Shown here: positions 10,026 to 53,946 of the stretch, one piece after another
How positions within the stretch are numbered: position 1 is the stretch's first letter
Layout of the letters: the number at the start of each line of letters is the position of its first letter
Source of the DNA: Vermamoeba vermiformis
Lineage: Eukaryota
Assembly (NCBI GenBank): GCA_045837725.1
Contig: JBEWZL010000261.1
Span: 62,001 to 115,946, forward strand
Direction: 5' to 3'
Length of the DNA: 53,946 nucleotides
Program-made: the position numbers and the translations under genes
Notes under the pieces: generated by a model
The model's database searches: none
Told to the model about the DNA's origin: nothing
What the model saw: the letters and a program-made list of their open reading frames with translations, nothing else

Positions 10026-10051
10026 CGGATTCAGCTAAAACGCTGTGATTC
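10026..10051 (+). promoter_or_regulatory. Second copy of CGGATTCAGCTAA-N6-GTGATTC, upstream of LRR-4
   Basis: Matches 8055-8080; lies ~90 bp before the ATG. Confidence 0.45.
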
Positions 10052-10116
10052 ATTCCAGCATTACTCTGATTCCGTTCATTACTGCTGTTAATCTGACGAA
10101 TTATTGCAGTAGCACT

Positions 10117-11867: not shown

Positions 11868-11911
11868 TCGCCACCGGTGACGTGACACTTCAATAAACTT
11901 TCTTTTTTGGC

Positions 11912-13382: not shown

Positions 13383-13765
13383 TGAAGTGTTATTAGTGAT
13401 CGATAGATAATGCGAAATAAGCTTAGAGCCCAAAAAGTACTGAACGAAGGCGGGAAAATTGACAGAATACCAAGTAGCGCATTTTTGCTACTAATCAGGA
13501 CAGTAGAAGCACATTCATAACTTTTCAATAATCATTTGGATTCGCATTGGTGTAAGCAAGTCCAGATTGAACTCAACATTGGGATAGATCTTTTTTGGGG
13601 ATTGACCGTTGCATCGAGTGGATTTTATTCCAAAAATTTCCTTTAATTGCTAGCTAGTTGAAAATATTATGAGCTAAATTGTGGAGCCAAAATAATGACC
13701 AGGTAAGATTTTTTTTATTAATAAATTTTGTTTTCCTTGATCAGAACTTAAATATTCGTTAAGAT

Positions 13766-30545: not shown

Positions 30546-30949
30546 TACGAACTAATCTCCGTCTCCGAGCTCTAATTAATCAATTTCGCTATGTACATAC
30601 ATATAGTACGGTATTCAATTAATTTATGTCATGAGGTCCTGTTGCGGGTTGCAAAAAATATTAGTTCTGTTATTTTACAAAGAAAGAAGCACTATAAATA
30701 CGTAGGCCATACGTAGTTAGTACTGCAGATAATGTACTAATCTTGTTAGTGTTTTTTTCGTAATAATCTAATATTATTGAAGGACTTGTACAAATACTAC
30801 TGATGCCAAATCCGCTTCTCACCGGATAATTACGCACCACCTCACATTTAATGGAGAAAAATACATGAACTGCTTATATTTTATTAGCCATCGTCAATCA
30901 TAAATTATAATCTATAGGATTGGCTTGTAGTTCAAGGAAATCGGTCGAT

Positions 30950-31756
30950 CTAAGGACGAGGAGTTCCAGGAGGGCAAACGTTCTGTCCACAAATGTCATT
31001 CTCGCATACTCTGACGACAGTGTTCGCAGGAATGTCGTTGGCGCTCAATCCGGGGTTTAGCTCCTCAAATCTGGGACCATTAATGCTGAATCTGGCAAAC
31101 AAAGTCATAGTGGTCCAGTTGCGTCCGGTGGTAGTCAAGCATCGGTTAGTTCTAGGAGGAAGAGTGCATCCAGTGCAAATGCATGTTTGAGATCGAGCGT
31201 AGTGTTCTTTAACATCGCGAAGTTGGTTCAATCCGCCAGTAATAATACGAAGAGCTGAGCCAAGTTGTTCAGTATCAGCAAATCTGTTCAAATTGTTTCT
31301 AGTCCAGATCCAAGTGGCGGTTTTAATAGCCCAAGGCATTTCAGAAACAAGATCAGGATTGGAAACGAAATCCTGTCCCAAAGCTTGACTTGCGGCTTGA
31401 TAGTTAAACTTGTCCTGCATTCTGAAAGCACCTCGACCACGGAAAGCGCAGCCTCCATCGTAGTGTCTGCACATAGTAGTATTGGCTTCAGTCCACTGAA
31501 TAAATCTGCCTGTCAAACTTCCAGCAAGAGCCAAGAACATTCTAATGCGAGGCAATGTATCAATATTGGCCTCAGTCAATGCAGCATTCATATGAGGCAA
31601 GTAGCTGGAGATTCTCGCATCTCTTTCGTGCCAAGCTTCCAAAACTGGAGGATACAAACAGTTCATTTGGTCCAAAGTAATATTAACTCTGGCCTGAGCC
31701 TCGGTAATAAATACACCTAAGGCAACGAGCAAAGTTACAACAATAATCGCTCGCAT
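30950..31756 (-). CDS. Secreted GH19 chitinase/endolysin-like protein lacking the catalytic Glu, with C-terminal LysM-like domain; intronless
   Basis: Signal peptide; MFLA, FRGRG, NY, NPDLV, IITGGLN motifs of GH19; ELNPGLSANDIPANTVVRV resembles LysM. Confidence 0.8.
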   Translation of the reverse strand: MRAIIVVTLLVALGVFITEAQARVNITLDQMNCLYPPVLEAWHERDARISSYLPHMNAALTEANIDTLPRIRMFLALAGSLTGRFIQWTEANTTMCRHYDGGCAFRGRGAFRMQDKFNYQAASQALGQDFVSNPDLVSEMPWAIKTATWIWTRNNLNRFADTEQLGSALRIITGGLNQLRDVKEHYARSQTCICTGCTLPPRTNRCLTTTGRNWTTMTLFARFSINGPRFEELNPGLSANDIPANTVVRVCENDICGQNVCPPGTPRP

Positions 31757-32002
31757 GGTGTTCAACGCAGAAAAAATACGAAAATCATTATCGCAGCTCT
31801 AGAAACTTCCAACAAGAACACTTTGACAGCTGTGGGACATTTATCGCATGAAATCTAGGGTTAAGAGCATACGCATGCGTATATACGAAGAAGCAAAAGG
31901 GTATTCTTGATTTGATTCCAAACCGAAACGGGATCGAGATCACAAAATGGTATTTGCTTGTCGCATATCTTTAATTTAGTTACAATAGTGCTAAATATAC
32001 GA

Positions 32003-34716
32003 TTACTTCTTGAAATCAAAGACACCAGTTTGAATTTCAGTGTCCGAGACCTCACCAGTATCAATTCGTCTGAACGACTCTTGTACGAGGCCCTTCGAGA
32101 AGATGTACAAGCACCAGCGACGCATTTCATTAGGAGCACTATCAACTAAGCCAGCTGAGATCATCTTCTTGTAGTTATCGCCGCCAGGACGATCGACCAA
32201 GTAACCTAACCATAAGACAGGTCGATCTCCGTGAGCCAAGACGAGATCGCGTGTAGCATCAGCTTGCAATTGTCTGTCGAGTCTATCGCGGTCATTACCG
32301 AAGTGGACGGTGATCAAGCCAAGTTCTTTGCCGTTCACATCCAGAACAGCGTCGATCAGACACGCGATCTCACCTTCCGGTGAAGGCAAGTTATATCGAT
32401 GAGCACGCTCTAATAGGAGGTTAGTAAATATACTCTAGCTTCTATTGAGTAGGTCTACGTACTGATAGGGAAAGCAGATAATAAACCACAGCCCCAAGTG
32501 TTGTTCATTGTAGAAGATCCATAGTCCGAGTACACGTGCATCTTGTCTTCAAACCTGAACAATAACATTAGCATAAACAAGTACTAATGTATATAGCAAT
32601 ATAGCCGTACCATTCCATAAAGTCTCTGTTACCCATGTAAAGACGAGCTGCATCCGTTTCGACGAGAGCAATGATGTTAGCACCACTGTTGTGGATCATC
32701 TAATAGATACAATTAGCTTATTAAGTCATAAATGTATAGTAGCTGGGACTTACATCCAACATTTGATCGTTGCTAGGCCAGCCCAAGTTGTCATAGCCAA
32801 AGTGCGTGGCCCAAACCATGCCGCGGATCTTGGTCTTGTCGAGGTAAGTGTCGTAGTTCTGGTAGTTTTGGGCGCGTTTGTAAACTGCAGGGGCGATGAC
32901 AACAGCGGAGATGATGAGCAAGGAAATAATAACGCGAGAAGGAGGCAAAATTCCAGTACTGCGCTTTGGAGTAGTAGGTTGTCCGCGAGATCCGGAAGTA
33001 GCAAGACCCAAACCGACGAGGGCAATGAAGACCATTTCGTTGGTCATTTCTCGGACGTAAGGACCGCCAGGCACGAAGTTGTAAGCAACAGTCCAAACAA
33101 CAGCCAACAACTAAAAAATTATGGTATTAATTGCTGGGCTTTCGCTTGTGCATTAAAAGGAGAAGGTTGGATTAATGAATGATATGTTCGTAAATAAAAT
33201 ATTTGCACGAGCGACAAAAAAACAAGTTCAGATGACTTACGAAGAAAACATAAGTAAGACCAGCAATAAGAGTAGTGCTACCAGGACGAGAGTTCAACGA
33301 AACATCTTCGATGGTCGAAGGCCACAAAGCAAAGATGTAGAAGAGCATAAAGTACGCGAGTTCAATTCTCGGTGTGGGACCGACAACACTCAACACTGCT
33401 GTGACGAGAGTAGCGAGGTAGAACACCCAAGATCTATAGTTTTGATAGTAGCCGGTAAGTACTTGATAATGCACGATAGCATATTGATACAACGTACCTA
33501 ACAAGGCCACGAGCATTGGAGAAAAGTAGACCGAGGACCATAGTTCCAATGACTCCAAGACCGTAAGGGAATGGATGCACATCGTAGTTTCGAGGCAAAA
33601 CAGCGTGAGAGGTCAAGAAGAAGTTGGTCAAGAAGAACAATAAGCCAAAACCGACGCCAAAGCGCAAAGTTTTGCCGACGGATGTGGCGGGATCGGGGTA
33701 AGCAACATCTGTTAAATCGCTTAGTATCCGAATAATTACTCGTGCAAATAATATTACGAATATTAGTATAGTATTTTTTCAACTATTTGAACTTACCAGC
33801 GGCTTCATAAGCGGTGGAGTCCTTTGAAATGATAAATGAGCTCAACACGCCCAGAACCAAAGCGGCGATGTTAGTCTCCTTCAAATAATAGATAGGGTTG
33901 ATAGTGCAAAGAGCAAATCGACCAGAAATCAAGCAGAGCAGGCCGAGCATGTGCGCATAAACTTTGGCAATGATTAGATCGGATCAATTCTTTGCACAGA
34001 AGTTGTCGTTTGATACATACCAGCACGATTTCTTCTATGAAGAATTAGGGTTCCATAACATAGCCCATTGCACCATTAGACCAGTAGCAACACCCAAGCC
34101 CAAGATAATGGATCGAGCGTTCAACTCGTTTACCAGGTAGGCATTGATTCCGACTAAAGTGCTAGCATATGCAATACCTACGCATAGTTAGATGACAATG
34201 TCATACGTTAAGCATTGTAAGACATAATTATTCTAAGATCTGACGTCTATTTTTCAGATGAGTCTATCTGCCGTGCCGTACCTTGATGATTATAGATGAA
34301 TTTTCTGAATTTTTTAATGCCCAAGAAAACACCAAAGGCCATGAGTCCGAGCATGACTTCCTTGCCAGTGAGGCCCATCTCGACTAACGGGAAGAACCAT
34401 AGCGTGGCAGGAAATTCAAGGATAGTACTCCAAAAAATAAAGGCTATAATGTTAGATATTAATGCACGAATTATATAAACAACGTGTCGTTGCGACGCGC
34501 AAAAAAATTTTCATTAATTTCAAAAAAAAACCCAGCAGCTTGTTTGAGCGAACTATGAAAAGATTTGAAATAAGAGGCGATATTTTAATTGTTAATAAAG
34601 ACGTTATTATGTGAAATTACGGAGCGGATGGGATATTTTTGCTTACCCAAGAAAATCTCGCTGAAGAAGCCAGCGTAAGGATAGCTATTGAAGCCTGCTG
34701 TCTTCTTTGAGTTCAT
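32003..34716 (-). CDS. CWH43: PGAP2-interacting protein / CWH43-like GPI lipid-remodelling protein, multi-exon
   Basis: Many TM exons, then an EEP-type domain: WATHFGYDN, ETDAAR, NTWGCGLLS, LPSPEGEIA, VHFGN, DRQLQ. Confidence 0.88.
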
Positions 34717-35931: not shown

Positions 35932-37896
35932 TTAAACAAATTTAACTTGGAGGTCACTATGCGTTGGAACCCAAAACTTGACTTCATTCGAGTCAGATGC
36001 CGTCACAAGCAAGTCTACTTGCGGATGTATCGTCGCGAAGTTAACTAAGTATTCATTAGTACGTAATTCGTAATCGATCATTGAAGACTTACGTAATTTA
36101 TCGTGAGCTTTAAATTGATGCATAATATTCTCAGAGTGCTTGTGTACAAACGTTAATTTTCCATCACCAGATCCGCTACAAATAATTTGTTCGCCAAGTG
36201 CGAAAGAAGGATGGACTATAAACATATCCTTGACTCGTCCAACGACCCACGAACTAATCTTTGTCATTGTTTTCAAGTCCCATAAATGCGTTTCAATTTC
36301 GTCGACGACGGCATCATTGCTCTATTAAGAAAAATAATATTAATTAATTATCAGATATATTATTTAAGGCATGAAGTTGATTGTTTTATGGTACTTACGG
36401 GGTTAGTAAAGTTGCGGACGTTGATAAGCAACTGCTCTTCATTTTCTGAGAAACAAAAGCCGATAATGTGACCACTCTCTTGAATAACTTTACAATCCTT
36501 TCGGAGAGTTGGTTCAGGTTGAACTTTTTCCTTCTAAAATTTAATCATAAGTATGGATATAATGCGAAAATTGGATCCGATCCACGATTTTCTTTTGTTT
36601 ACTTACCTCATCATCGTCAGAGTCATAAATATACTCCCCAGTGTTTTCATCAATCACAGGTGGCTTAAAAGGAATAGAGCGCTTTTTTAATTGCTCCACT
36701 TCGACTAGCCACAATTCATCAAGCAGATCGATGTCCTGGCTGTTTGGAGAAGCAGTAGCTCCGGCCATATAGGTCTTTTTAGGACTTAATATATTAAAAT
36801 GAAGCGAGTTAGGGGAGCTTTGAATGATAGACCGCCAGACTTGGGTTTTCGTTGCCACATCCATCAACTGCATTGTCATGACCATTGTACCATCACTAGT
36901 TCTCTTATAATACACAGCTTCGATATTAAAATTAGTAAGCGTACTATCTAATACGAATAGAGATTATTTTTGGAACTTACAATGCAACATCTGCTCGTTG
37001 TTGAGCCATCCAGCGTAACAATCAAATAACGCGACTCTAACGTGGATTGAATCACTCCAATCTTTCATCGCCAGTCCTACCGCTGAATCACCGCTCATAG
37101 TGCAGATAAGGTGGTCTGAATTAGGGGACCATTCGTGTCTTGTGATTGAATCGAGGTAAGTGCGAGTGAAGACCTCTTCTACTGTGAGGACGCTATGAAA
37201 GAATCTCATTAATAATATTGTTCAAATTATAAACATAGTTCAGTCTTTGTAAAAATAGTTTGACGGAAGATCTTCTGAATCCAGAATAAGGGTATTGTAA
37301 ATTGGGAGATGGCATTAATATTTAAAATAAACTTAATTAAAGTGCACAATTTAAATCGCTTACGGGGTTGGTTCGTGTTGGATGTTCAACTTCCAAATTT
37401 TCAAGGCTCCAGCTTTGTCGGAACTGGCGAGGTATTGACCGTCAGGGCTGAAACTGATTTGCCACGCCTCGTCGTATGTTTTGTGCGTATGAAGAAGCTT
37501 CCAACTGCGATACAAGGCGCTTTTTTTGTAAAGTGTCGCGAAAGGTAGATTTGGTAAAGGTCCGTTCTCTTTCAATTCGATGAAATCTCGATGATACATG
37601 TGCTTCCATATATAGTCTTCCTTATGAAAGTGACTCCATGCTTTGCAAACGGTGTCTAAATGTCAGAAAAATATTTAGAATTTAATTTTTTCATATATTA
37701 TCTGCAAATTATAATAATAAATGAAATTGATTGCCAGTAGGAATAGTTTAATTTAAGATATAATGGAATTATTTAGTGCAAAATTGAACAGAATCTGGTA
37801 CGGACTTGCTCGCAAGAACGATCTCCAATCCAAGAAGTGAAACACTAACGCGAGTATTTCATTAGACATATGCTCTATTCCAACCACTTTCTCCAT
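35932..37896 (-). CDS. F-box/WD40 protein (FBXW5-like), multi-exon
   Basis: MSNEILALVFHFLD...VCKAW F-box; WD repeats ISFSPDGQYLASS...KIW, SGSGDG, TASDSNEVKFW. Confidence 0.82.
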
Positions 37897-37999
37897 TTTA
37901 ATGGTATTTGTTTGTGGAGCAGCTTGCGTGAAGTTTAGTAAACTCAACAAAGACGGGACGAGATTTTTTTTTTCACAAACCAATTTTATTTATAGCACA

Positions 38000-40962
38000 A
38001 TGGATTATCCTCAATTATATGAGGTTCTTCCATTTGAAATATTAGTTGAAATTTTATCGTTAGTGCCGCCTAGTGCCGTGGTTCATTTTGCAAGCGCATC
38101 CAAACGCCATCTGAAGGTTTTTAATCAAGAAAATGGCTTGTGGCAACATCTAACATGCAAAATACAACGTTGGAGTGCCAATGGTGCGTATGATAATTTG
38201 TGGAGCGGATCTACATTGTCAAATTTCCCGCCATCCAAATTTATTCATGACCATAAAATTCTAAAATTCCAATAAAGGCTAGAATTTCATTAACATATAT
38301 TATAGATGCGAAAGCACTACGAGAAGGAAAAAAATCGGTCGATTGGTCGAAGGAGTACCGCGTCGCAGCATTTTATCATGACAAGATCATCAATAATCAA
38401 CTCCAGCACGATAAAAGAGCTAATACGAATGAATATATGCCCGAGATATCAAAAAATCATTTTAAATTCACACCGAACCAAGATCCAGCCGTGCAAACTT
38501 CCGATCGAATTCTTCGTACGTTACTGTACGAATGATTCTCGATAATATTAATAGTATATTTATAGAGCCTTCAAAGTACAGTACCCTTATACCCGCTGCC
38601 ATTAGGAAACTTTTCTACAGCCTATTTCGAGGTCGCAATTCTAGCGATGGAAGAGTAAGACTTTTGAACATGATTGCACAATATGCATGAACTAATTTTA
38701 TTAGTGGTATATCTTCAATTCATATAGGTGCCGCCCTTGAAGGCTATGTAGCAATGCCAGGCATAGGACGTAATTCCTATGGGTATGACAGCGAAGGCAA
38801 CATACTGCTCGAGAGCGAACTTAGTCCTAACGATGTACCAACTTTTAATGCTGGAGATATTAGTAAGTCTATTTAATTACAATACAATACGATAACGAAT
38901 AGTATACAAATTTAATTGGGTTTGAGATCGAGATCCTGATAGAATTTTTTTGCGCAGTTGGATTTGGCATCAACTTCGTCAAAAATTCAGTTTTCTTCAC
39001 AAAGAATGGAGTTCTAATAGGAGATAAGACACATACTTACCTGCAATTTCCTGTGCTAAATTTAAAGACCCTCCATGCTTGCGTCGGATGTCTTCTTGGC
39101 TGTGAATTCCGCGCTAATTTTGGCTCATTGCCCTTCAAATTCGACCTATTGAAGTATCAGCATCAATATGGCCATACAGATACCTTAGAACTCTACTCGA
39201 CAAAAAGTTCGTACTGGATGCATCCGTTACAAATTCTATTTTGAAGTTACTTTACTTACCATTTGTTAAATATAGTGCTAGGTCATTTATTCCGAGTTTC
39301 AGACGATGAAACAATCCCAGAATATACCAAAGAAGGTGCTATCGCTAAAATTTCGACGATGGACTATAACCTGCCAGATCCGTCGATGAAATTGAACTTA
39401 TATTTATGGTTAACGCATTACCATCGAGACCCTCGACCTAACGGTTATGATTCTAATCAATTTATACAATTTTGGTTCAGTCAGTTGTTAATTAGCAGTC
39501 TGGATGCGCTGTTATCGTAAGTTGAAAGTGTACGGAAGATTGTTTTAAAAATTTATCAATTTTATTATGATAGATGGGAGCACAGTGAAAAGTTCAAGAT
39601 ATCTTTAGAACAAATGGCGCAATCTCTAAATTTGGTATGAGGGACTTTTTTGCTTCGATCCACTTGCAAGATCATTAATCGTATTGTATAGCCATATGAA
39701 GGCTTGCCTTATGAAGAATTGGTCATGACAATTTATCGAGATGCAAAAGGAATTTTTATCGATAACATTTTCGGCGTCATTTCGTTGGCATTAGAGGAGC
39801 TTACTCAAACAGCTTTTACCGTAATAAGTTTATTTAATTTTTAAATTAAATTTCGCGTAATAATTATATTATTTTTTAGGAAGACAATGGCCTATGGGCT
39901 CACCTTATTCTTGCATTTAACCATTTAAGTAAGATCCAATATTTTTTTTCAATTAAAAATTTGTTTGACGAGAACTAATGAATATATTATCATATAGATA
40001 GTGGAGTTCCATTGGAGCATTATACACAACAAGCTGCTGCAATGGTTTTAGTGAACACGTTCAATTATCAATTGCAAGGACCCACTTTCACGCAACAAGA
40101 TTTCTTTTCTATTATCGACAATTACTTCTGGTACTTGTTTTATCTGTAAGTCTACTCGGCTTCTAAAGATTCATATCAATATTAATTGTATTTAAATGCT
40201 TAGTACTCGTTCGCGTGCTCGCCAAGAGGTCATCTTGCAAAAAAATATCAAGTTGGCAGAGCCGTTTAAAAGTGGAAAACTGCGTAATGAAGTTCTTGTA
40301 AGTGCTATTTTATCATAATAATAAGAATAGGTACTAATAGATTTGATTAGAGGGTTTACGGAGATTCCTCACGCCTTGCTATAGACGAAATTTTGGAAAA
40401 TGCAGATCTGCCCGTTTGGAGCGAAGAACAAGTTGATCCCGAAAAATTCCCGTTTAGGCTTATTTATGGCATCAAAAACAAGACGTTATCAACGTACACA
40501 AAAGCATCGGCAATATTATACGGAATGTATTACCTGAAAATTCCCGTGGATGAGTTCCCAACAGAAGAACAGTTTCTGTCAGACGTTCTCAGAAAATGCG
40601 AAGAACTTGTGTCATTAGAGCGTAGAAAAGAATTATTGAAGAATTTGGCTTTAAACATTAGCGCGAACAGCAGCAACGGCAAAATTGAACACGAATTGGT
40701 AGCTGACATGTTTGGCATCGAGATGACAATTAGCAGTGCCGAAGACGAGTCAAAATTAGTGGTGCAGCCATTAATGATCAAAAAGGCGTTTGAACGAGTT
40801 GAAAATGAGATCGCGCAAATTGACAAGCAGATCCAATCTCGCAATCAAAGCGCCTCAACATCGACCCAATCAATATTATCAACAAAGAATATCATAATAG
40901 CTGCTAGTGTGTTGGCTGTTGCTATTGGCGGGTTTTTCTTGTACAAACGAAAGACAAAATAA
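38000..40962 (+). CDS. F-box + SPRY + helical domain protein with C-terminal tail anchor (copy 1), many exons
   Basis: LPFEILVEILSL F-box; SPRY motifs AYFEV, PGIGRNSYGY, GDIVGFGIN, FFTKNG, ANFG.PF.FD; terminal IIIAASVLAVAIGGFFLYKRKTK. Confidence 0.85.
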
Positions 40963-42229: not shown

Positions 42230-43932
42230 GAGGTTCTTGATTGACTCTGGAATCGTTGACGCGATATAATTATTCTGCAGATCCAACGACACCAACTCCG
42301 TAAAGTTGCCAATGATTGAAGGAATCGTTGCTGCTCCAATCCTTTGACTAAAAGCAAGCGGTAAAAAGATGTGAATAACCCGGCCAGTCGTAGTGTTGCA
42401 CCTGATCCCATACCACGAGCAATGTGGCTCAGTAAAGTTCCATTGTGGTTTTGTACTGTTCGCCCATATTGCGTCGTAGAGTTCAAGCAGCATATTCCGT
42501 TCGTAATTTGCATGTGTTAGTTGTTTGAGTCCTGGTGCAGTACTCGGAGTGAGACTCGTGAGTGGAACTGTCGAGCCTCGATTTGGCGTTGGTGTAGTGA
42601 GAAGTGCGAAACCAATTACAATCGAGGCGATAATAGCTGAGAGTGCGACAGCACCAAGTGTCCAGCCAATCACTTTTCTTCTCTTGGTCGTCTTGTTCGT
42701 CTTGTTGTTCGTTGTCACGGGCTCTGTTTGTGCTTTCGGTTTTGCACCAGTAAATTGGTCGTAGAGAGAGTCCACAACGCGTTTGATTCGATCAACTTCA
42801 GAAGTGACGTTCTGAATGTCATTGTAGTTCTGTTTGATTGACTCACTCATGTATGGTATCAGTGACTCGTAGTCGACGTAGAGAATACCTGCGTAGATTA
42901 ACAATATTAGATCACTCCGGGTCCACTGGTTATCGCGTACCATCGATGAGTTGAACAGCTTCAGGCACCACACTTTCAATCTGTTGAGCAATGTACCCAA
43001 TGAACCTCTTGTTCGTTGCATGACTCACTCCTGGCTTGAACTTGTACGATATTCCGTTGATTTGAAGTAACGCCGCTCTGCTGTCTCGATCTGAATGAAT
43101 TAGATAAGCGAACACGATGTGCTCTTATTGGTAGGTACCTCCTTCCAACAAGCGAATGTCTTCTTTGATATTGATATCTGATGCTTTGTAGAAGTTGAGT
43201 GCTCGGAAGTTGCCCACGACTTCTGCATTGCCGTTGTACAGTACCATGTAGTTGTCGCTTTCTTTCGTCAGTGCCAGCGAGAGCTGGCTCTCCTCCACAA
43301 TGCTCTCAACGTTAAAGATTGCGTCCTCGAAGAGGTATTCTTGAATACTTGGCGAAGACTTGACCTCTTCCGGGTGTCAGCAAGATAGCCATCTTCGCCG
43401 ATCCAGTAGATCGGGACCACAGCTGTCATTATGATTTTAGTTCAGAAATAGGTTCGGAAACGATAAAAATAATCTACTTCTTTCGAATAGAGTGAGCATT
43501 CTTACTCTCGTTTTCTTCGTCATTGCTTTGAACGTGCCGCCTTTTTGGAAAAAGCTCCCAGATTCGAGAGGTGCCTGCTTTGACCAAATTTCCGTTTTCA
43601 AAATATTCAATTATCACCTGAAACAGTCTGTCTTTCGTTCTTCTGAAGTCAAATACGCCTTGGTTGATTTTTAAACGAATAAATAAACCACTGACTGAAT
43701 TTTCAGAGTCTTCAGAGTAGATCAACGGATTTCGTTTCGCCCAAGTGAAACAATTCTTCGGTTCATGCTTGATATTGCCAAAGTGGTCTGTTGCAACCAA
43801 TTTAATATTGAAACTACATCGAATGTCGACCATGTCGAATCCAAACGGTTCTGTTCTCGTGACCGCAGACCCAAGATTCTCGTTGAGCGGAACCAAGAGC
43901 CGGAACATATTTCTGATGTGTATTTTCTCCAT
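42230..43932 (-). CDS. MYRF-like membrane-tethered factor copy 1, 5' part (putative DNA-binding domain, peptidase S74, coiled coil, TM, first LRRs); exons 43932-43506, 43422-43139, 43090-42941, 42888-breakpoint; 1-nt deficit at ~43372
   Basis: ASDINIKEDI, GYIAQQIESVVPEAV, VDYESLIP (S74 motifs); TM VIGWTLGAVALSAIIASIVIGFALL; LRR N-cap CSWYGIRC. As assembled it runs into a stop at 42206. Confidence 0.85.
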
Positions 43933-43974
43933 CTTTGTTGCCTGTTGTAATTACTGAGCCATTGTTAGAATAAA

Positions 43975-45196
43975 TTGGGAAAAATTCAAACGTGCCAAAA
44001 ATATCTTTCGCTCGAAAGACAACTCGAAGATATTTTCAACAAACGAGTCAAAGTATTACAAGTCCAAGAAGAAGATTTAGTCGGCAGGTCTTTTGACTTA
44101 GAAGCAGATTGTATTGTGCAATTCCTGACTGGAACAAGTTCGTTTTTGATAGACCGAATTACAACATCACAAAAAATTACGGAGACTGAACCTAGTAAGC
44201 CAATCATATAGTTATATTAACTTACATAATCATCGATTAATTTTATGAGTGATTTAGTTCTAGCCCACCACTCGTTCTTCCACATTAACGGAGACTTTAT
44301 TTTGTACTTTACGCCCGCAAATCAATTAATGGTACGATTCTTTTTCGTTATACTTATTTTATTACACAGACTTGACTAATATTTAAAATAGATATTGAAC
44401 TGGAAGACTAATGATGTGTCGAGTTTGGAAGTGTTATCTGTCAGTGAATCTCGGCTGGCGCTAGCACTGCCGAAGAGGTTCTTTAATACCTGCGAATACA
44501 CAATATTTGCAGACTCAGAGAGGGTCATATTAATCAACCTGAACGAAGCAACAGGCACGTCAAGGCTAACTTGTTCTATCCAATGTTCGTTAATATTAAC
44601 CAGATCTTGCAGTCGTCAGAAGTTATGTCTCACCGACAAGGTTCAAACCATGTTTTTTGCAACTATGGCCTGGAGACAAATCAAAGTTTTTCTGCGTCGG
44701 AAGTATCATGCATGTACGTGAATATCGCGGTTTTGAAAACTCACGTGATCTGATTTTTTCATTGCAGATCTGGTCAGTATACGAGTCTCGAATATTGGAT
44801 TCTATATTAGTGCACCCAATTCATCCACTGAGCAACAACGAGGCTTTTCCGCTTAAAGTGAAATTTCACGACAACAAAGTATTTTTGCAATACCCAACAG
44901 TGATTCACGTAAGATTCTTATTATGACGCCTAAATTGTATCTGACGCCTATATTTATTATGGCAGATCTTGAGCAAGACTATAAATGGATCATATGAGCT
45001 GTTGAATAGCTTCAAAGAAGGTTGTTTTGACTTTGACGAGTGTCATTTATTTGATACCGAACCTTTTCTGCATACATCTCTCATTATTAGCGATTTTTCA
45101 CCAAAGACGTTGCCTGCAAATGAACAGAATAACAATACTAATCAGTCCAATCCGGCAAGATCTGCGGATGTTCAAACGTTCGAAGTTATCGATTAA
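43975..45196 (+). pseudogene. Multi-exon gene fragment (beta-propeller-like) with no identifiable start codon
   Basis: Several GT-AG-bounded open exons (ILNWKTNDV..., IWSVYESRIL..., FDFDECHL...IISDFS); the 5' end runs into the upstream region of MYRF-like copy 1. Confidence 0.45.
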
Positions 45197-45271
45197 GGCC
45201 CGGATGATAGTACTCAAGGTACCACTTTACCGAACAATGATAATATAGTATAACAAGGTTGTGATTTTATT

Positions 45272-46465
45272 TTACAATTTTTCAACGTCAAAAACGACTG
45301 GTGGATTGGTTGGCATGTACGAATATGTACAAGTCGATGCGTTAATAAAAATGGTCTCTTTGTCTTCATATACGCCATAGCTACGCAAGTACATAGTTAA
45401 TATAACAAGATAATCCAAACAAGGCAATTCTATATTTAACTTACGACTCGTGGATGTGCCCGAAGACGTGGACTAAAGGCTTGGCCTTACGAATAACTTT
45501 AATTAATTCTTCGCAGCCTGCATCGATTCCATTCTTACAAAGACCTCCAAAACCTAATATATATAACATAAAATAAGTTTCTGGAGCAAAAATTCGGTTG
45601 ATCCGATCCGGATTTGATCTTGCAACAAAAGAGCTCCTTTCTTAATAATTAATTTACCTTGAGGAGGTCCATGAGTAATTAATACGTCTATGCCATCGAG
45701 GGGAATTTTGTCCCATTTCTCGCGAATTGCAGGTCCTCGCTCTACGTTGAAGGCCCAATCGCAGAACTCTGGCTGCCAAGGACTACCATATATTCTAATC
45801 CCTTCTATTGTAGTCTCTTGGTCCTATTGCTACTATTAATACTTGAAATTTCAGCAGATCAGCCGCGTTACCTCTAAGTAGATGCAGTTCTTGAGCAGTT
45901 TTTTTGGCTCAGGGCCATATTGTCGATCTGGATTCATTTTTCTTTGTGCTCGCGTTTCTAAATAGCCGTCTTCAAAGGATAAATCGTGATTTCCTAATTT
46001 GCTGAATTGGTATTTATTTGAAAATTCAAAGTCTTCATGATCTTACCCGCAATAACTACTTTATGCTTAAAACCCGATTTTCCTAAGAATTCACTGAGAG
46101 ATATAATGTCTTTATCTTCTCCTACGTTTGAAAAATCGCCAGCTATTTAAAGAATTAAAATTGAATTTTTTGTTTAATTTACAAATTATTATTTACCATG
46201 TATCAATACGTCTCCTGCTGGTATATTCTTTATTTTATCATGCATTGAATGAGTATCCGATATACAAACGAATCGGACCGCGTTAGGTGATTTTGCAGGT
46301 AAATCCTCTTAACAAAATTAATTAGCGATCTTATGACGTATAATATATTACATTACCTTTTGGATCGTACACAGTTAATTTTGTTTTTTGCCTTGTAATG
46401 GTGAAGGAACCAAATCCAGGATCAGCCGGCAAGTTTATGTCGTCAGTACTTGCGTTATTGCCCAT
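45272..46465 (-). CDS. Metallophosphoesterase (MPPED1/2-like), multi-exon, possible N-myristoylation (MGNNAS)
   Basis: RFVCISDTH, DVLIHAGD, IAGNHD, YGSPWQP, LITHGPP, HVFGHIHE, FINAS. Confidence 0.92.
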
Positions 46466-46588
46466 TAATTAAGAATTTATTTATCCTCGGGTTGTTGCTA
46501 GCAATTTGAAAATATTAAAACAACCAAACACGAAAGTTTGTTACTTTTTCATTCTTGCGAAGGCAGGACAAACCGTCCCTGGTCTATA

Positions 46589-47476
46589 ATGGCCACAATA
46601 GAGCTCAACTTTTCTGAAGACGAAGCTATTAAAAGTTATCTCGAACAAAGTATTGCAGTAACCGGCCAAACACCAGATCTGATTGCCGTATCATTTGTTG
46701 AAAATGTCTCCGACGCAGGAATTAAGGCGATATTAGCACCAAAATTAGCAACAAAATTAAAGAGAATTTATGTTAATTTTTGCGAGAATATTAAAGAAGC
46801 AGAATCATTTTCAGATCTTCCATCTGCTACAAACCTTCAAGATCTGTCGTTTCTGTATTGCCCAGTGCTTGACGATCAGCTGCTACATTATGTATCAAAA
46901 TGTCGAACCGTAGAAAACCTATCAGTAATTGGATGCGTCTCGGCAGATCCGTGGACAACGAAAAATATCGTGGCGATGACAGATCTCAAAAAATTGACGC
47001 TAAACCACAACGAATACCTTACAACTGAAGATATTGCCTCCATTAGTACTTTATCAAATCTTACAGAGCTAGATATGGAAGATATTCACTTGAACAACGA
47101 AAGTTTGTTTTCGATCGTGGATGGATCTGGATCGAGCAATTTAAAGAGATTGAATATTGAAGAGAATCCCGACGTCACAAATATCGGATTCCACGAGTTA
47201 ACAAAATTAAGTAATTTAGAAGCATTACGAATCGGAGTCTGTCAAGCGACGGATGTGGGCTGGAGATCAATTGGCAAATTGACGCAATTAACAGCACTTC
47301 AAATATTAGGCAGCACTAATTTGACAAATAACGGATTCCAAGAAATTATCACGGAATTAACACGACTGAAGGAGCTACTAGTTTGTTTTTGCGATCAGCT
47401 TACCCAACAATCCGTCCGTGCCTCAATTAAGCAACTCACTAATCTCACCAAAATATCGATTACAGATATTGATTAG
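46589..47476 (+). CDS. Cys-containing LRR protein (FBXL/AMN1-like repeats, no evident F-box), intronless
   Basis: LxxLxLxxCxxLTD-type repeats throughout. Confidence 0.85.
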   Translation: MATIELNFSEDEAIKSYLEQSIAVTGQTPDLIAVSFVENVSDAGIKAILAPKLATKLKRIYVNFCENIKEAESFSDLPSATNLQDLSFLYCPVLDDQLLHYVSKCRTVENLSVIGCVSADPWTTKNIVAMTDLKKLTLNHNEYLTTEDIASISTLSNLTELDMEDIHLNNESLFSIVDGSGSSNLKRLNIEENPDVTNIGFHELTKLSNLEALRIGVCQATDVGWRSIGKLTQLTALQILGSTNLTNNGFQEIITELTRLKELLVCFCDQLTQQSVRASIKQLTNLTKISITDID

Positions 47477-47775
47477 AATATTTTTGCTCACCAGCCCAAC
47501 AATGAAGTGATCCACGTATTTACTCTCTGGATCTTTGAATCAGATTTGAAGATCGAACTTTTGTTTCGGAGCTTCACTCTTTGTTCTGCAGAAGTCAAAG
47601 TGCTCGTCTATAAGTCCACCTCAAGGGGCTTATAACGGGGCGGAGTTTGCTGGAGAAACTAATTTGCCCGTTTTTCCGAAGATAGTTTGTCCATTTCACC
47701 GAGCGCCGCACACTTAAATAGCGAACTTTCGTACATTCTGCATTCAAATTCCAACACAACAAACACAAACAAAGC

Positions 47776-48654
47776 ATGTCCTCGGCAACTCAAACATCCC
47801 GCGTCATTCTCATCACTGGCTGCTCAAGTGGCTTTGGCCGGTCATTTGCTCAACACTTCCTCGAGCAAGGCCAAAAAGTCGTAGTAACTGCCCGAAAACT
47901 CGATACCATTCAACATTTTGCTGCGAAATTCCCTTCACACGCCCTCGTGCTCTCATTGGATGTCAACAACCAAGATTCAGTGAACGCTGCTGTCGCGAAA
48001 ACTCTCGAGAAATTTGGTCGAATCGACGTTCTTATCAACAACGCTGGATACTGCTTGTATGGCTTGGTAGAGCACTATTCTGAAGCAGAATATCGCTTGC
48101 AAATGGAAACTAACTTCTTCGGGGCTGTTCGAATGACTCAAGCCGTCCTGCCTTCGATGCGCAAAAACAGATCCGGTCACGTGATTCAAATCAGCTCTGT
48201 TGGCGGTGTCGTTGCTAGTCCAATGGTCACACTCTACAATGCGAGTAAATTCGCTCTTGAAGGGTTCACTGAAGGATTAGCCAAAGAGACCGCAGCTTTC
48301 AACGTCCGTTTTACCATCGTTGAACCGGGAGGCTTCTTGACCGATATCACCAGCGATAAGAACTTAATTGCTGCAAATACAACAGATGAAGCCACTGACG
48401 CTGATTACGCTCCAGTCATACAGAATAATCAAAAGTTCTTGGAATATTTGAAGAACGCGCCTGGCGATACCAACAAGGCCTCAGCAGCTGTCTTGCAAAT
48501 CATTCAAGCACCGAACCCTCCTCTTCGCTTGCCTTTAGGCGCTGACTCAGTCGGACTCATCAAAGCCAAGCTCGATCAGCAACTGAAGGAGATCCAAGCG
48601 TGGGAACAACTAGCCGTCTCCACCACCTTTGACCACGTTAATGCTAGCCACTAA
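47776..48654 (+). CDS. Classical short-chain dehydrogenase/reductase, intronless
   Basis: TGCSSGFG, NNAG, catalytic YNASK. Confidence 0.95.
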   Translation: MSSATQTSRVILITGCSSGFGRSFAQHFLEQGQKVVVTARKLDTIQHFAAKFPSHALVLSLDVNNQDSVNAAVAKTLEKFGRIDVLINNAGYCLYGLVEHYSEAEYRLQMETNFFGAVRMTQAVLPSMRKNRSGHVIQISSVGGVVASPMVTLYNASKFALEGFTEGLAKETAAFNVRFTIVEPGGFLTDITSDKNLIAANTTDEATDADYAPVIQNNQKFLEYLKNAPGDTNKASAAVLQIIQAPNPPLRLPLGADSVGLIKAKLDQQLKEIQAWEQLAVSTTFDHVNASH

Positions 48655-48786
48655 AAGTAGCTCATTTATCTGTCACTCAAATAAAGGAAAATCTGCTTCC
48701 AAAAATAGACATATTTTTACCGTTACAAATTGTTGTTGAAAGCGAAATCATACTAGTACGAAACACAAAGCTGGATATTGGTAATA

Positions 48787-50581
48787 ATGGAAGAAGATAC
48801 AAGGTCAAGCGATTTTTTTGCGCTGCCACTGGATGTGCTGGTCGATCTTTTACGATCGACAGATCGAGCTACGATTGTTAACTTATCTAGCGTTTGCAAA
48901 TACCACAAAAATCAATTCGATAAAGAAGATGGTCTATGGAAGAGATTAACATTGAAAATATTTGGCTGGACTGCCCAAGGTAATTACGAAAATCACAAAA
49001 ATGAAAATATAATTTGCAGCCATTATTTAAAGCCTAAAAATGCTTTATTGTATTCGATTATAATTTTAGAAAATAATATTTGAGCTATACTTTACTTTTT
49101 GTTCTTGTCAAGTCTCGATCAGATCATGATCGAAAGGTCAGAAAGTACTAATCACAATATTTAGACTCAAAAACATATCTAAACGATAGAAAAAATATCG
49201 ACTGGCGAAAGGAATATCGCGTGGCTTCATTTTATGACCACAAGATCCGAAATAACAAATTAGTTGTACTGTCTAAAGGAGGCAAAAATCCCTATAACTT
49301 CGTGGTAAGTATATCTAATTTACATATATAATGTAGTATTTTATTAATTTTATTTCGATTAGACGCCAACGAGTGTTTTTGAGTTGTATCCGCTTCCGAT
49401 CGGCGACTTCAGCACCGCTTATTATGAATTTAAAATGCTGGGAAACGATAAGTAGGCATCTTATATTAAATAATATATAAATTGGATCCAACTAAGGCTC
49501 TTGGTATTTTTAGATTTGGTGTACTTTGTTATGGTGCCGCACTACACGGATTTGACAACGCATTGCCAGGAATGGGACGAAATTCCTATGGATATTGCAG
49601 CGATGGCATGATTCATCTCGAATGTGAGACTGCTCCCGAAGATGTGCCTATATATGGCAATGGAGATTTACGTAAGTTTTTTATTCGAATTTGTAACGAG
49701 ATCTGGCGATCGCAAGCGGACTGTCTAATCAATCCTTATTAATGATTATACTATAGTTGGGTTTGGTATCAATTTTGCAAAGAAATCAATCTTTTTTACC
49801 AAAAATGGAAAGTTGATCCAAGAAAACACGACCAATGCGCACGGCCACAAACTCAAAAATCTTAAGACCTTATTTGCAACTATTAGCAAGATGAAGACGA
49901 AAGCATTAGATGCTAATTTTGGTGCCAAGCCATTTGTGTTCGATCTGATCCAATACCAGCAACAACAAAATAACAGATCAGATCCGTCCAAACTTTTCTC
50001 AGAAATAAGTACGTAGTATATAACCTATTATCTTTGCAAGTATTTATTAATTTTGTTCTTTAGTTTGCGATCATTTAACGACGTTAAGTGAAAGTGAAAC
50101 ATTTTTGGATATGACGACATTCGAACAGCCCTATTTAACGCTAGAATTTTATCCGCCAAGATTCGATCGATTCAAACTCAATCCATTTTTGTACACATTA
50201 ACTTTCTTGAAATTACCGCCTGGATACGATTCGTCAATCACCGACGAAATTTTTGATCTATTTTTATCCGTTCACGGCATTATGGATGCAAGAAAAATGT
50301 TACCCTCGTAAGTAATATTAATATATATATATATGTATATATTAGTAATTTATTGCAATGAATTTTCGCTAGAATGCAAAATTCAGTACGGATCCAAGAA
50401 GGCATTAAAGATATTACACGATCCCTTGGAATAGTAAGCCAAAGATATATTTAATAAATAAGAACTAAAATAATGTTATTTTATTCTTAGAAAACGAAGG
50501 GCAAATCATGGAATCAGTTAGTCAAAGACGTGGATTCGGAGTGCTTCAAATTTTATTGCATGGTTGTATACCAAATAGCTC
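48787..50581 (+). pseudogene. 5' half of F-box/SPRY copy 2; cut at the inversion breakpoint, runs into a stop at 50635-50637 as assembled
   Basis: LPLDVLVDLL F-box; PGMGRNSYGY, VGFGINF, FFTKNG, ANFGAKPFVFD; exon structure parallels copy 1. Confidence 0.82.
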
Positions 50582-51229
50582 AAGAATCTGGTTTACTTAA
50601 CACTTTCGGACAACCCACTCGTCGGAACACTTCCTGACTTGAGTGGATTGGAGAAACTAAAACAACTGAATATTGGTTCGACGCTATTATCAATGAACGA
50701 GAGCTCACTTGCCACGCTAATGCAAATTCAGTCACTTGAAAGCTTGTGGCTCCAACAAGTAACTATTGAAGGAGAACTGCCGTCGAACATTTCGAACTCA
50801 CTCACGATAATTGACCTATCAAACTGTGGGCTACAAGGAACAATTCCGACGTCTTGGGTAAACAGCAGCATTCAGCATCTATATATCAGTAGGAATAATC
50901 TCACCGGCTCTATTCCGTGCTTTGGCAAGGAAGTCTTATCTCTCGACGCATCTCACAACAACTTTGACGGAGAATTCTGTGGCAGTGAGTTTCGACGTTT
51001 GCTCCAATTGACCCTCACAGATACAAAGCTGACTGGCGTATTTGACTTGCCAAACGTTGATGTTTATGGCATGACCGGGTTGTTTATTCAACGAAATCGT
51101 TTCACTTCATTCATGCCTTCAACGATGAACAATACTGACGGGCCTTTCTCTTGCCTTGTTCTCGATAATCCGTTTCAATGTCCCATACCCAAGTGGGCTC
51201 AAGTCGAATGTCATGCCACTTGTAATTAA
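50579..51229 (+). CDS. Orphaned 3' LRR ectodomain of MYRF-like copy 1
   Basis: Reads LKNLVYLTLSDNPLVGTLP...NPFQCPIPKWAQVECHATCN*, collinear with the C-terminal half of copy 2. Confidence 0.88.
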   Translation, partial: LKNLVYLTLSDNPLVGTLPDLSGLEKLKQLNIGSTLLSMNESSLATLMQIQSLESLWLQQVTIEGELPSNISNSLTIIDLSNCGLQGTIPTSWVNSSIQHLYISRNNLTGSIPCFGKEVLSLDASHNNFDGEFCGSEFRRLLQLTLTDTKLTGVFDLPNVDVYGMTGLFIQRNRFTSFMPSTMNNTDGPFSCLVLDNPFQCPIPKWAQVECHATCN

Positions 51230-51514
51230 AGAAACGCGTTCTTGACTCAATATTTAGCGTAAGTAATTATTTACGATAAGCAGTTAGTTTGAAACTAAGT
51301 CTAATCTCAGCAACAAGAACTCTGGACTAGCGTAGGAAGCGTGATTAAACATGACACAAGGGGCTATTTAAGGTAATTTGATCCATAGTATAGTTAAAGA
51401 TTTGTTTCGAAACGAAAGATTCTACATCGAGCCGTTAAAATTGATGCTTTTGACACGTTTAAATTATTCCATTTTATGCTAACAATGACTCAGTGATTAC
51501 AACAAGCAACAAAG

Positions 51515-53946
51515 ATGGAGAAAATACACATCAGAAATATGTTTCGGCTCTTGGTTCCGCTCAACGAGAATCTCGGATCTGCGGTCACGAGAACAGAACC
51601 GTTTGGATTCGACATGGTCGACTTTCGGTGCAGTTTCAATATCAAATTGGTTGCAACAGACCATTTTGGAAATATCAAGCATGAACCGAAGAATTGTTTC
51701 ACTTGGGCAAAACGAAATCCGTTGATCTACTCTGAAGACTCTGAAAATTCTGTCAATGGTTTATTTATTCGTCTAAAAATCAACCAAGGCGTATTCGACT
51801 TTCGAAGAACGAAGGACAGAATGTTTCAGCTCATAGTTGAATATTTTGAAAACGGAAATTTGGTCAAAACAGGCACGTCTCGAATCTGGGAGCTTTTTCC
51901 AAAAAGGCGGCATGTTCAGGGTAATGACGAAGAAAATGAGAGTAAGTAGATCACTTTTATCGTTTCCGAATCTATTTCTGAACTAAATCACAATATCAGC
52001 CGTTCTTCCGATCTACTGGATCGGCGAAGATGGCTATCTTGCGGACACCCCATCACGTGTATCGCCTGGCTATCTATCTGATACTCAGCCGCAAATATCA
52101 CCTGAAGATATGTCTGCTCATCAAATCAATGCTGCCTCTTCTGAAGAGGCCAAGTCTTCGCCGAGCATTCAAGAGTACCTCTTCGAGGACGCGATCTTTG
52201 ACGTTGAAAGCCTCGTGGAAGAAAGCCAACTGTCGATGGCACTGACGAAAGGAAGCGACAACTACATGGTGCTGTACAACGGCAATGCAGAAGTCGTGGG
52301 AAACTTTCGAGCACTCAACTTCTACAAAGCATCAGATATCAACATTAAAGAAGACATTCGCTTGTTGGAACAGGGTACGAGAACGTGTGCAATCTTTATT
52401 ATTTCGTTTAGCTTTGCTAACGTTCTGTATTCAGACCGAGACTGTCGAGCGTCACTCCTTCAAATCAACGGAGTGTCGTACAAGTTCAAACCAGGAGTGA
52501 GTCACGCAACGAACAAACGATTCATTGGATACATTGCTCAACAGATTGAAAGTGTGGTGCCTGAAGCTGTGCAACTCATCGATGGTACGTGCAAATGGAT
52601 AGTGTTATCGCTAAGAGTGAGCTAACGTTATTGACATAAATAGGTATTCTTCATGTGGATTACGAGTCACTGATACCATACATGAGTGAATCAATCAAAC
52701 AGAACTACAATGACATTCAGAACGTCACTTCCGAAGTTGATCGCATTCAACGAGTCATCGATGCTCTCTACGACCAATTCACTGGAACAACACAGAAGCT
52801 GCCAACAAAAAGAACCTCAAATAAGAATAGAACCAAGGTGATTGGCTGGACGATTGGCACTATTGGAGTATTGGCTCTCGTTATATCATTTGTCCTTGGT
52901 GCCGTGTTCTTCACAAACCAAAATGAAACACCAAGTGCAACAGTTCCAACAACAAATGTCAACCCAAGTACGAACAGGCCTAACCTTGCGCCTCTAATGC
53001 CTGCAAACTACGAGCGAGGCATGGTGTTAGAGTTGTATCATTCGTTGCAGCTCGTCAACAAAGCGCTTCAGAACTTGACGGGCCCGCACTGTGACTGGCC
53101 TGGAATATCATGCAACGCTACCACAGGTCGTGTCATCAGCATCAAAATTAATACGTTAATGGGTCACTTTCAACTAAGACCGGGCATGCCTGCAACTATT
53201 CCAGCGAGCATTGGAAATTTCACAGAGCTGCAATTCTTGGATCTGAGCTTCAGCAATCTCACGGCAACAATTCCTGCGTCAATCACCAACTTGAAACAGC
53301 TATTTCATTTGCGACTAACCAGCAATCCTCATCTGACTGGCACATTGCCTGAGTTTGCAGCGTTACCTACGTTGAAGGAGCTGTTTCTCTTTGGCACTTC
53401 CCTTTCAGTGAACGAAAGCTCTCTGACGATGTTGATGAACTTGCCGTCAATTGAAACGCTCAGTCTACGCGGACTTGCGATCCGCTCTCAGCTACCTACA
53501 ACAATGTCCAAGTCGTTAAAACAGTTACTTATCAGTGGCTGTAGGTTGCACGGAACAATTCCGAAGTCATGGGAAGACAGCAACGTTCAATACCTTGACA
53601 TCAGCGACAATAGGCTCAATGGTTCTATTCCGTGCTTAGGAAAGAATATTCATTCGTTGTACGCTGATCACAACCAATTTTCTGGAGAATTTTGTGGCGA
53701 CAATTACAGACAAATTGAAGCGATGTTCCTGATGAATATGAATTTGACGGGAGTGTTTGACTTGCCGAACGCAGATATCTCTCAGATGTCAGCTCTATTT
53801 GTCCATGATAATCAGTTCACGTCGTTCATGCCGTCCTCACAACCGGACGAAGATCAAGGGCCACTTCAATGTTCAGCGGTTAACAACCCTCTCAAATGCC
53901 CGATTCCTGATTGGACGAAGAAATTATGTAGTGCCAAGTGCACCTG
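51515..53946 (+). CDS. MYRF-like membrane-tethered factor copy 2, intact: putative DNA-binding domain, S74 autoprotease/chaperone, coiled coil, TM (52838-52912), LRR ectodomain; exons 51515-51941, 52000-52374, 52435-52584, 52644-end
   Basis: All three introns are phase 1 and give one open frame. Ser 52332-34 and Lys 52347-49 in ASDINIK. CDWPGISC N-cap and ~9-10 LRRs. The window ends at ...KCT-TG, where the paralog stops. Confidence 0.9.

Follow-up and report, generated by a model that had tools for sequence, protein, structure and literature searches.

Probable exchange and rearrangement in a pair of Vermamoeba vermiformis genes predicted to join a Peptidase_S74 domain to a leucine-rich repeat ectodomain

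A 53,946-nucleotide stretch of Vermamoeba vermiformis DNA (GenBank assembly GCA_045837725.1, contig JBEWZL010000261.1, positions 62,001 to 115,946 of the forward strand; hereafter the window) consists of eukaryotic nuclear DNA with short introns, and carries at its right-hand end an intact gene of four exons, here named B (51515-53944, plus strand). The conceptual product of B comprises 751 amino acids without an internal stop; the gene reaches the end of the window, and its stop codon lies just outside. The predicted protein consists, in this order, of an immunoglobulin (Ig)-like all-beta domain at the N-terminus (N-domain), a variable linker, a Peptidase_S74 domain (S74), one membrane helix, and 11 plant-type leucine-rich repeats (LRRs) with cysteine caps and N-glycosylation sequons. 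To the left of B, the frame at 50579-51229 codes solely for the final eight and a half LRRs, the C-terminal cap and a stop codon, and appears to be the detached 3' end of a former tandem neighbour, copy A, whose 5' part lies on the minus strand (Table 1). The initial annotation had placed two MYRF-like paralogs together in 50579..53946; the motif LVSLDLQNN, which it quoted from one of them, comes from the opposite strand 8.3 kb away, outside that interval. Two paralogs are indeed present, of which B is intact and A is split across the strands, with a frameshift in exon 2.

Table 1 Coordinates of the exons of genes B and A and of the inverted segment between the two pieces of A.
Feature	Coordinates	Strand	Content	Support or comparison
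B exon 1	51515..51941	+	142 codons plus 1 base; orphan Ig-like N-domain ending in basic FPKRRH motif	Open reading frame (ORF); join to exon 2 as in intron-free P0255
B exon 2	52000..52374	+	VLPIYW motif, Ser/Pro/acidic linker, beta-helix stalk, predicted S74 cleavage site ASDINIK	
B exon 3	52435..52584	+	Peptidase_S74 core	PF13884 match; joins as in P0255, P0171, P0187
B exon 4	52644..53944	+	S74 end, long helix, basic juxtamembrane stretch, membrane helix, Thr/Pro/Asn stalk, LRR N-cap, 11 LRRs, Cys-rich C-cap	ORF; Pfam LRR families
A exon 1	43506..43932	-	N-domain	7/142 residues differ from B; dS 0.29, dN/dS 0.07
A exon 2	43139..43422	-	91 nt of B (52050-52140) deleted near 43372; frame shifted	
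A exon 3	42941..43090	-	S74 core	Against B dS 0.46, dN/dS 0.09
A exon 4, 5' fragment	42230..42888	-	S74 end, membrane helix, stalk, LRR N-cap, first LRRs	PF08263 match; 0/219 differences from P0004
A exon 4, 3' fragment	50579..51229	+	LRR 3 to C-cap and stop; starts directly after an in-frame TAG	9/215 differences from P0004
Inverted segment	42230..50578		5' part of A, gene with phosphoesterase-like motifs, cytosolic-type LRR gene, short-chain dehydrogenase gene, F-box/SPRY gene	CTC (GAG on the other strand) at both junctions

All three exon joins of B match the intron-free relatives P0255 (781 amino acids), P0171 (731 amino acids) and P0187 (773 amino acids). Read evidence was taken from a DNA run (X1; 74% of sampled words present), an independent water metagenome (X4) and two RNA runs. 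One X1 contig covering 51566-51643 has seven differences from B exon 1, three of which carry the base of copy A while four are new, and it comes either from a different allele or from a third sequence, a mosaic.

The split of copy A falls within its LRRs. When compared by tblastn, residues 1-216 of B exon 4 matched 42886-42230 on the minus strand, and residues 216-432 matched 50579-51223 on the plus strand. The minus-strand piece ends with IPESIKNL, followed by seven foreign codons and a stop, and the plus-strand piece begins LKNLVYLTLSDN, at the point where the related record P0004 continues past the end of the minus-strand piece. P0004 (422 amino acids) is intact and spans the junction without a break (IPESIKNLKNLVYLTLSDN), and since it reads through the break without interruption, a single 8.3-kb inversion of 42230-50578 would be the simplest account of the split. 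The two gene copies are connected by inverted repeats of 44-489 nt with 83-93% identity, linking 42735-43989 with 51458-52797. The deletion in A exon 2 brings the frame of exon 1 to a stop after 34 out-of-frame residues, while exon 2 of the ortholog P0195 stays in frame through the linker where A has the deletion. As the LRR exon is split and exon 2 is frameshifted, while a related strain has A intact, copy A is judged by its sequence to be a pseudogene in this strain, and a recent one. Pseudogene decay was ruled out as the source of LRR divergence in A, the intact ortholog P0004 being 97% identical to it.

The S74 domain of B was recognized by PF13884 with 37.7 bits against a cut-off of 22 (51987-52625), and the related proteins P0017 and P0041 scored 43.2 and 44.2 bits, respectively. 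Both A and B contain ASDINIK, a Ser-Lys dyad of the form S-x4-K, and the Ser and Lys of the family member P0041 align with SSDRRIK of the T5 tail fibre (6f45) and with the matching site of MYRF (7dc3). The family thus shares its sequence family and dyad position with the chaperone domains of phage tail fibres and tailspikes such as the T5 long tail fibre, but the phage domain is C-terminal and is discarded after fibre folding, whereas here the domain precedes a membrane helix and a receptor domain. The membrane helix is a hydrophobic run of 26-27 residues, with six Lys/Arg among the 15 residues before it and none or one after it, and with 8-9 sequons and nine Cys residues beyond; an AlphaFold2 (AF2) model places a helix at residues 69-89 of the exon-4 ORF. 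Given the basic residues before the helix and the sequons and Cys residues after it, the N-terminus including S74 is predicted to be cytosolic and the LRRs to lie outside, making these type II membrane proteins.

The AF2 model of the N-domain (predicted local distance difference test, pLDDT, of 91) contains twelve strands. Its best fold match among 48,161 chains was the DNA-binding domain of EBF1 (Z 9.1 over 119 residues, root-mean-square deviation, rmsd, of 3.0, 13% sequence identity); a second EBF1 structure followed at Z 8.9, and the next non-EBF1 entry at Z 7.0. At least 15 of the 50 fold matches listed were Ig-fold DNA-binding domains (CP2c, velvet, p53, Rel, MYRF, Ndt80, STAT, CSL, TonEBP and Runx). 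A Pfam scan of the N-domain at E up to 1 returned no family, neither COE nor, in exon 1, 16 N-domain relatives and the full-length P0017 and P0041, NDT80_PhoG. The likeness to EBF/COE proteins is accordingly one of fold only, without membership in their sequence family. EBF has a zinc-knuckle motif, and its pattern was not visible in the 142 residues of the N-domain. Neighbours found with a protein language model include LAG1-DNAbind and Velvet, which are to be taken as leads only. DG1062_N (PF28397) is a further lead at most: the clusters nearest to the N-domain in the ESM Atlas carry it with a score of 0.88, below the reliable level, and it was absent from the Pfam scan. A conserved basic motif, PK(K/R)R, follows the N-domain, and within this region R132 is nearly invariant.

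In the ectodomain, Pfam matched LRR families only, and no C-terminal lumenal domain of the MYRF type was found in that part. The LRRNT_2 cap (PF08263) was recognized in copy A with 24.2 bits against a cut-off of 20.7. In the AF2 model of B exon 4, 256 residues reached a pLDDT of at least 90, and the register assigned to the LRRs is supported by strands that fall on x3-L4-x5 of each of the 11 units. The nearest structures were PGIP (rmsd 3.2, with a TM-score of 0.77 when normalised to the target), FLS2, PXY and HAESA; sequence matches went to plant LRR kinases, and the best matches in sequence and structure were GSO1, FLS2, PEPR1 and PGIP. The ectodomain is similar to plant LRR receptor-like proteins and kinases and to PGIP in its LRRNT_2 cap, its units of about 24 residues with the pattern LxxLxLxxNxLxGxIP, its Cys-rich C-terminal cap and its variable concave face. 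The proteins differ from the plant receptors in lacking a kinase, in carrying a cytosolic S74 and Ig-like domain, in their reversed orientation with the ectodomain at the C-terminus, and in their protist source.

The two halves of A and B differ in conservation far more than chance would allow. Over the 5' parts, 1229 nt could be aligned with 89.2% identity, in contrast to only 159 nt (73%) of the 3' part. The seven differences among 142 residues of exon 1 that had been reported at the outset were recovered (I37F, S81N, L103M, V106L, I108V, A118T and S135G), as was the near-identity of S74, the core of which is 94.2% identical over 138 residues. Nei-Gojobori estimates of synonymous divergence (dS) and of its ratio to nonsynonymous divergence (dN/dS) between A and B showed dS to rise along the gene, from 0.29 in exon 1 (dN/dS 0.07) to 0.34 at the start of exon 2 (about 0.08), 0.45 at its end (0.09), 0.46 in exon 3 (0.09), 0.71 in the first 47 codons of exon 4 (0.06) and 1.4 in the juxtamembrane stretch, membrane helix and stalk (0.37). 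In the LRRs the proportion of synonymous differences (pS) was 0.74 or more, which is saturated, so that dN/dS is not measurable there. Intron 1 is likewise 88-93% identical between the copies, and when the 67 nt upstream of the ATG are included the range is 86-93%. Because silent sites, intron 1 and upstream sequence are similar in the 5' half while the LRRs are saturated, the two halves of A and B must differ in age.

The same discordance was found when A and B were compared with the full-length relative P0255 in a three-taxon count. In the 5' half, A agreed with B in 66 cases, A with P0255 in four and B with P0255 in nine; in the membrane and stalk part the corresponding counts were 7, 18 and 5, and in the LRR part 22, 44 and 26. 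The LRR part thus groups A with P0255 and not with B (binomial p 0.009), and differs from the 5' half with a Fisher p of 2e-15. In a maximum-likelihood tree of 22 ectodomains, B likewise fell with P0001, apart from A, which joined P0004, P0002 and P0255 (support 99/94). Between A and B the N-domains, on the other hand, are 95% identical, while each is only 71-72% identical to that of P0255. Since the LRR part of A groups with P0255 and the N-domains of A and B are nearly identical, these alignments lead us to conclude that the 5' 1.3 kb was swapped between A and B, through gene conversion or recombination, at a time when the LRR lineages had long been separate. The exchanged tract begins 67 nt upstream of the ATG and reaches the codons immediately preceding the membrane helix. 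Judging from its dN/dS of 0.06-0.09, strong purifying selection acts on the 5' half as well. A check for gene conversion had been proposed with the initial annotation, and the low dS, the similar introns and the discordant trees indicate exchange, so that constraint alone does not account for the near-identity.

The variation of the LRRs was found to be far from even. The six pairs of LRR motifs quoted in the initial annotation are all present, and its observation of a kept scaffold with changed exposed positions agrees with the alignment of all 11 repeat pairs of A and B, in which the exposed x of xxLxLxx differ at 43 of 55 positions, compared with 17 of 44 scaffold positions and 63 of 150 in the rest of the LRR domain. 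In a set of 15 members (A, B and P0001-P0013), the exposed LRR positions had an entropy of 2.32 bits, against 1.24 at other LRR positions and 0.99 in the scaffold (Mann-Whitney p 8e-12), and the median odds ratio for change at exposed sites over the 105 pairs was 4.9. Per position, x2, x3, x5, x7, x8 and x10 formed peaks of 2.2-2.5 bits, whereas scaffold positions ranged from 0.9 to 1.2 bits. Divergence is therefore not spread evenly over scaffold and surface, and its concentration on the concave LRR face is a feature of the whole family.

The suggested diversifying selection on the LRRs was examined in pairs of sequences. In the moderately diverged pair A and P0002, 21 of 55 exposed positions changed, in comparison with 26 of 150 in the rest of the LRRs and 8 of 51 in the linkers of the juxtamembrane and stalk parts (p 0.016 for exposed sites against linkers), a hint from this alignment that exposed sites may change faster than linkers. 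The closest pairs showed no excess at exposed sites (B and P0001, 4/55 against 11/156; A and P0004, 2/55 against 7/150). For the exposed sites of A and B, dN was 1.08 and pS 0.74-0.98, which is saturated, so that the ratio is untrustworthy; since silent sites in the LRRs are saturated, no dN/dS above 1 can be claimed. The variation of the concave face fits a distinct ligand for each paralog, with positive selection as no more than a candidate cause. Two loci were tried as paralog DNA for codon analysis and found unusable: L001 is a weak 2.1-kb metagenome locus (46% identity over 104 residues), and L002, from a genome scan, is a bacterial LRR gene.

The closest functional parallel is found in MYRF of animals and MrfA of Dictyostelium, in which autoproteolysis releases an N-terminal transcription factor from the membrane, according to the accounts of cleavage given in PMC3742443 and PMC3828593. 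The present family resembles those proteins in that S74, with its Ser-Lys dyad, is predicted to lie on the cytosolic face directly ahead of the only membrane helix, the C-terminus being outside. An Ig-fold domain N-terminal of S74, followed by a basic motif, is a further likeness. In contrast, the N-domain of the family is not NDT80/PhoG by Pfam and its fold scores Z 5.4 with the DNA-binding domain of MYRF (5zhu) and 5.0 with Ndt80, compared to 9.1 with EBF1; the ectodomain consists of LRRs rather than the C-terminal domains of MYRF, and there are many paralogs instead of one or two genes. The designation MYRF-like consequently suits the S74 domain and the membrane topology, and does not extend to the N-domain.

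By analogy with MYRF and MrfA, the protein would trimerise through its S74 region, the chain would cut itself at the Ser of ASDINIK, and the freed trimeric N-terminal fragment would enter the nucleus and bind DNA. The LRR ectodomain would supply a ligand specificity for each paralog, and may gate trafficking, oligomerisation or cleavage. We regard it as reasonably probable, taking the locus as a whole, that 51515-53944 is an intact gene B standing beside a 3' end that was cut off from copy A, once its tandem neighbour, that the two are members of a multigene family whose products are type II membrane proteins in which self-cutting by S74 releases a DNA-binding N-terminal fragment and the LRRs set the ligand, and that the 5' halves of the two copies have been exchanged.

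Several observations weigh against parts of this interpretation. Self-cleavage, trimerisation and nuclear entry of the family proteins are carried over from MYRF and MrfA, and MrfA cleaves constitutively in the experiments described in PMC3828593, so that the ectodomain need not gate cleavage. That the N-domain could be a DNA-binding head is suggested by fold likeness only; the Z of 9.1 is modestly above the Z of 7-8 given as typical for unmatched models. A profile of the N-domain searched against PDB sequences gave chance matches only (Med11, E 0.49) and none to a solved DNA-binding domain, and a Foldseek search of the PDB gave weak matches to Ig domains, of which none reached E 0.001. Very recent conversion would be marked in exon 1 by a long identical tract, but the longest run there (45, with 33 differences in 475 nt) was not significant (permutation p 0.77); the differences are evenly spread, so the exchange would not be very recent. 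As for the split of A, its two pieces are unequally similar to P0004 (0/219 differences on the minus strand, 9/215 on the plus strand, p 0.0016), which a single recent inversion does not explain. The inversion is without independent read support: the contigs of X1 differ from the window at many places, and the depth of X4 is zero over 49800-51459, so that the right junction is not covered.

An unlikely alternative is that the family proteins serve in surface recognition or adhesion and that the N-terminal fragment is no transcription factor, acting for example as a cytosolic adaptor for phagocytosis or the cytoskeleton, or that S74 is only a folding and trimerising module. Such a role would agree with the N-domain having no sequence relation to known DNA-binding families, and non-nuclear Ig-like sandwiches also score in the fold search, with Z 6.6-7.0 for the transglutaminase N-domain and 6.1 for ZP-C. 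The clear top match is nevertheless a DNA-binding domain, with many further matches of the same fold class that bind DNA, and the conserved PK(K/R)R after the N-domain also argues against this alternative. Moreover, among the characterised eukaryotic proteins covered in PMC3828593 and PMC3742443, the only ones in which S74 lies in the cytosol ahead of a membrane helix act as transcription factors.

It also seems improbable to us that A and B are both working, diversifying receptors of an immune type, with positive selection on the concave face and with selection alone holding the signalling half constant. The contrast of 2.32 with 1.24 bits, the median odds ratio of 4.9, the comparison of A with P0002 and the many members of the family would all suit such a repertoire. 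Set against this, copy A is broken twice in the window, the exposed dN of 1.08 stands against a saturated dS, the closest pairs show no enrichment at exposed sites, and constraint alone is insufficient for a 5' half in which silent sites and intron 1 are similar too and the trees of the two halves disagree. Of the receptor repertoire that had been proposed initially, what stands is that the family keeps its cytosolic module conserved while its LRR ectodomains diverge (39 clusters; 46 N-domain representatives); one of the two copies at this locus is a pseudogene, and the shared transcriptional output would follow by inference from MYRF. Like the repertoires of plant receptor-like proteins and nucleotide-binding LRR receptors (NLRs) and of variable lymphocyte receptors, the family has many genes with variation concentrated on the concave LRR face.

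Returning to the interpretation of B as a membrane-bound regulator, a related arrangement has been described in Caenorhabditis elegans, where PAN-1 and MYRF bind one another through the extracellular part of each and MYRF needs PAN-1 to reach the cell membrane, in the findings presented in PMC8099431. In both cases an LRR ectodomain would be coupled at the surface to a self-cleaving factor of the S74 type, a likeness of domain type. The nematode system consists of two proteins acting in trans, whereas here a single polypeptide would carry both parts, as a 'Rosetta stone' argument from gene fusion predicts. A more far-reaching and, in our estimate, rather doubtful proposal is that sensing is accomplished by this one polypeptide: a ligand on the LRRs would control trimerisation and phage-type self-cleavage and send an EBF/Rel-like head to the nucleus, concerted evolution would keep the output uniform, and the concave faces would diversify under selection. 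The result would be a repertoire resembling innate immunity and independent of kinases, TIR domains and NLRs, and a natural fusion of PAN-1 and MYRF. To our knowledge, no eukaryotic transcription factors other than those of the MYRF type are freed by a self-cutting domain derived from phage. A family whose extracellular part is an LRR solenoid of the classical ligand-binding kind, occurring in numerous divergent forms, would offer a direct way to ask whether S74 cleavage can be gated by an ectodomain. Few pattern-recognition systems are known in bacteria-grazing protists, and such a family would bring a new receptor architecture to them. The A/B pair would illustrate how the output half is exchanged between neighbours while the sensor halves are old and kept apart, and how members are lost quickly by rearrangement.

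With respect to the rearrangement itself, undoing the inversion leaves CTC twice where P0004 has a single Leu, which is possibly a 3-bp duplication at the junction or else a 1-in-64 coincidence. No inverted repeats longer than 8 nt were found at the junctions 42230/50578. The unequal likeness of the A pieces to P0004 may stem from mixed haplotypes, from gene conversion acting locally or from a join made in assembly; for comparison, B and its close relative P0001 have 16 differences before the equivalent point and 11 after it. Among the joints and loose ends listed for X1, none lies at 42230 or 50579, with 25 further loose ends existing beyond those listed. The F-box/SPRY gene extends into the right junction with its last exon, and the frame of this gene before the inversion would have ended six codons earlier. 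That the split is an assembly error, A and B in reality being intact tandem genes, might be argued from the single-piece exon 4 of P0004, the unequal likeness of the two pieces, as joined haplotypes might give, and the deviating contigs of X1, the best-matching run, but is very unlikely given that the junction lies within unique LRR sequence (about 50% protein identity between A and B) and not at the border of the 1.3-kb inverted repeat, a place where assemblers fail, that CTC is present at both junctions, that X1 lists, albeit incompletely, no joint or loose end at either, and that A shows decay independently of the split through the frameshifting deletion in its exon 2.

A and B are members of a multigene family that is probably amoebozoan. 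Among the best 41 matches, 39 family-like clusters at 90% identity were found, two bacterial-labelled matches having been set aside, while the N-domain has only 46 relatives at 50% identity among 1.84 billion representatives. A further 59 exon-level proteins share the block of stalk and cleavage site, nearly all with 65-97% identity, and one transcript-derived member in EukProt is labelled Vermamoeba vermiformis. The two RNA runs yielded 16 and 22 reads; almost all were partial and fell within the conserved S74 core, which says nothing on expression. In the literature searched, neither a fusion of S74 to an LRR ectodomain nor this N-domain was described, an absence there and not proof. A preprint on membrane-bound transcription regulators (10.64898/2025.12.20.695554) mentions amoebozoan proteins with NDT80 and S74, and no LRR, in the passages considered.

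In X1, the summed contig depth over the S74 core (42745-43574 and 51875-52704) was 5,200-14,000, or about 9-28 times the flanks, compared with some 400-900 in other bins, none of which exceeded about 1,100, and many X1 contigs match the S74 core only and diverge beyond it. The pattern points to numerous paralogs whose S74 DNA is nearly identical, although depth does not equal copy number. Viral contigs contained no family member; five loci matched the S74 part only, with 33-39% identity over residues 251-358. The two bacterial-labelled relatives are P0032, from a Microscillaceae metagenome-assembled genome, and P0034, from Brasilonema sp. CT11 (S74 and LRR, 32% identity over 77% of the query), and may be either protist DNA in bacterial assemblies or true bacterial homologs.

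Besides the 5' part of A, the inverted segment contains a minus-strand gene at approximately 45441-46042 with GNHD- and GHIH-like motifs, for which no Pfam match was obtained on exon-level ORFs; we take these motifs to be typical of calcineurin-like phosphoesterases. It is followed by a cytosolic-type LRR protein (46502-47476), a short-chain dehydrogenase (47722-48654) and the F-box/SPRY gene (48757 to about 50600). Elsewhere, the window encodes two opposed ABC transporters with ABC_tran and ABC2_membrane_7 domains (1068-3594, minus strand, and 20044-22187, plus strand), which form its second inverted gene pair. An IPP transferase, a GH19 chitinase-like gene and a PGAP2IP-like gene of nuclease fold are located in 28533-33182, and a further F-box gene is found at 37841-38275.

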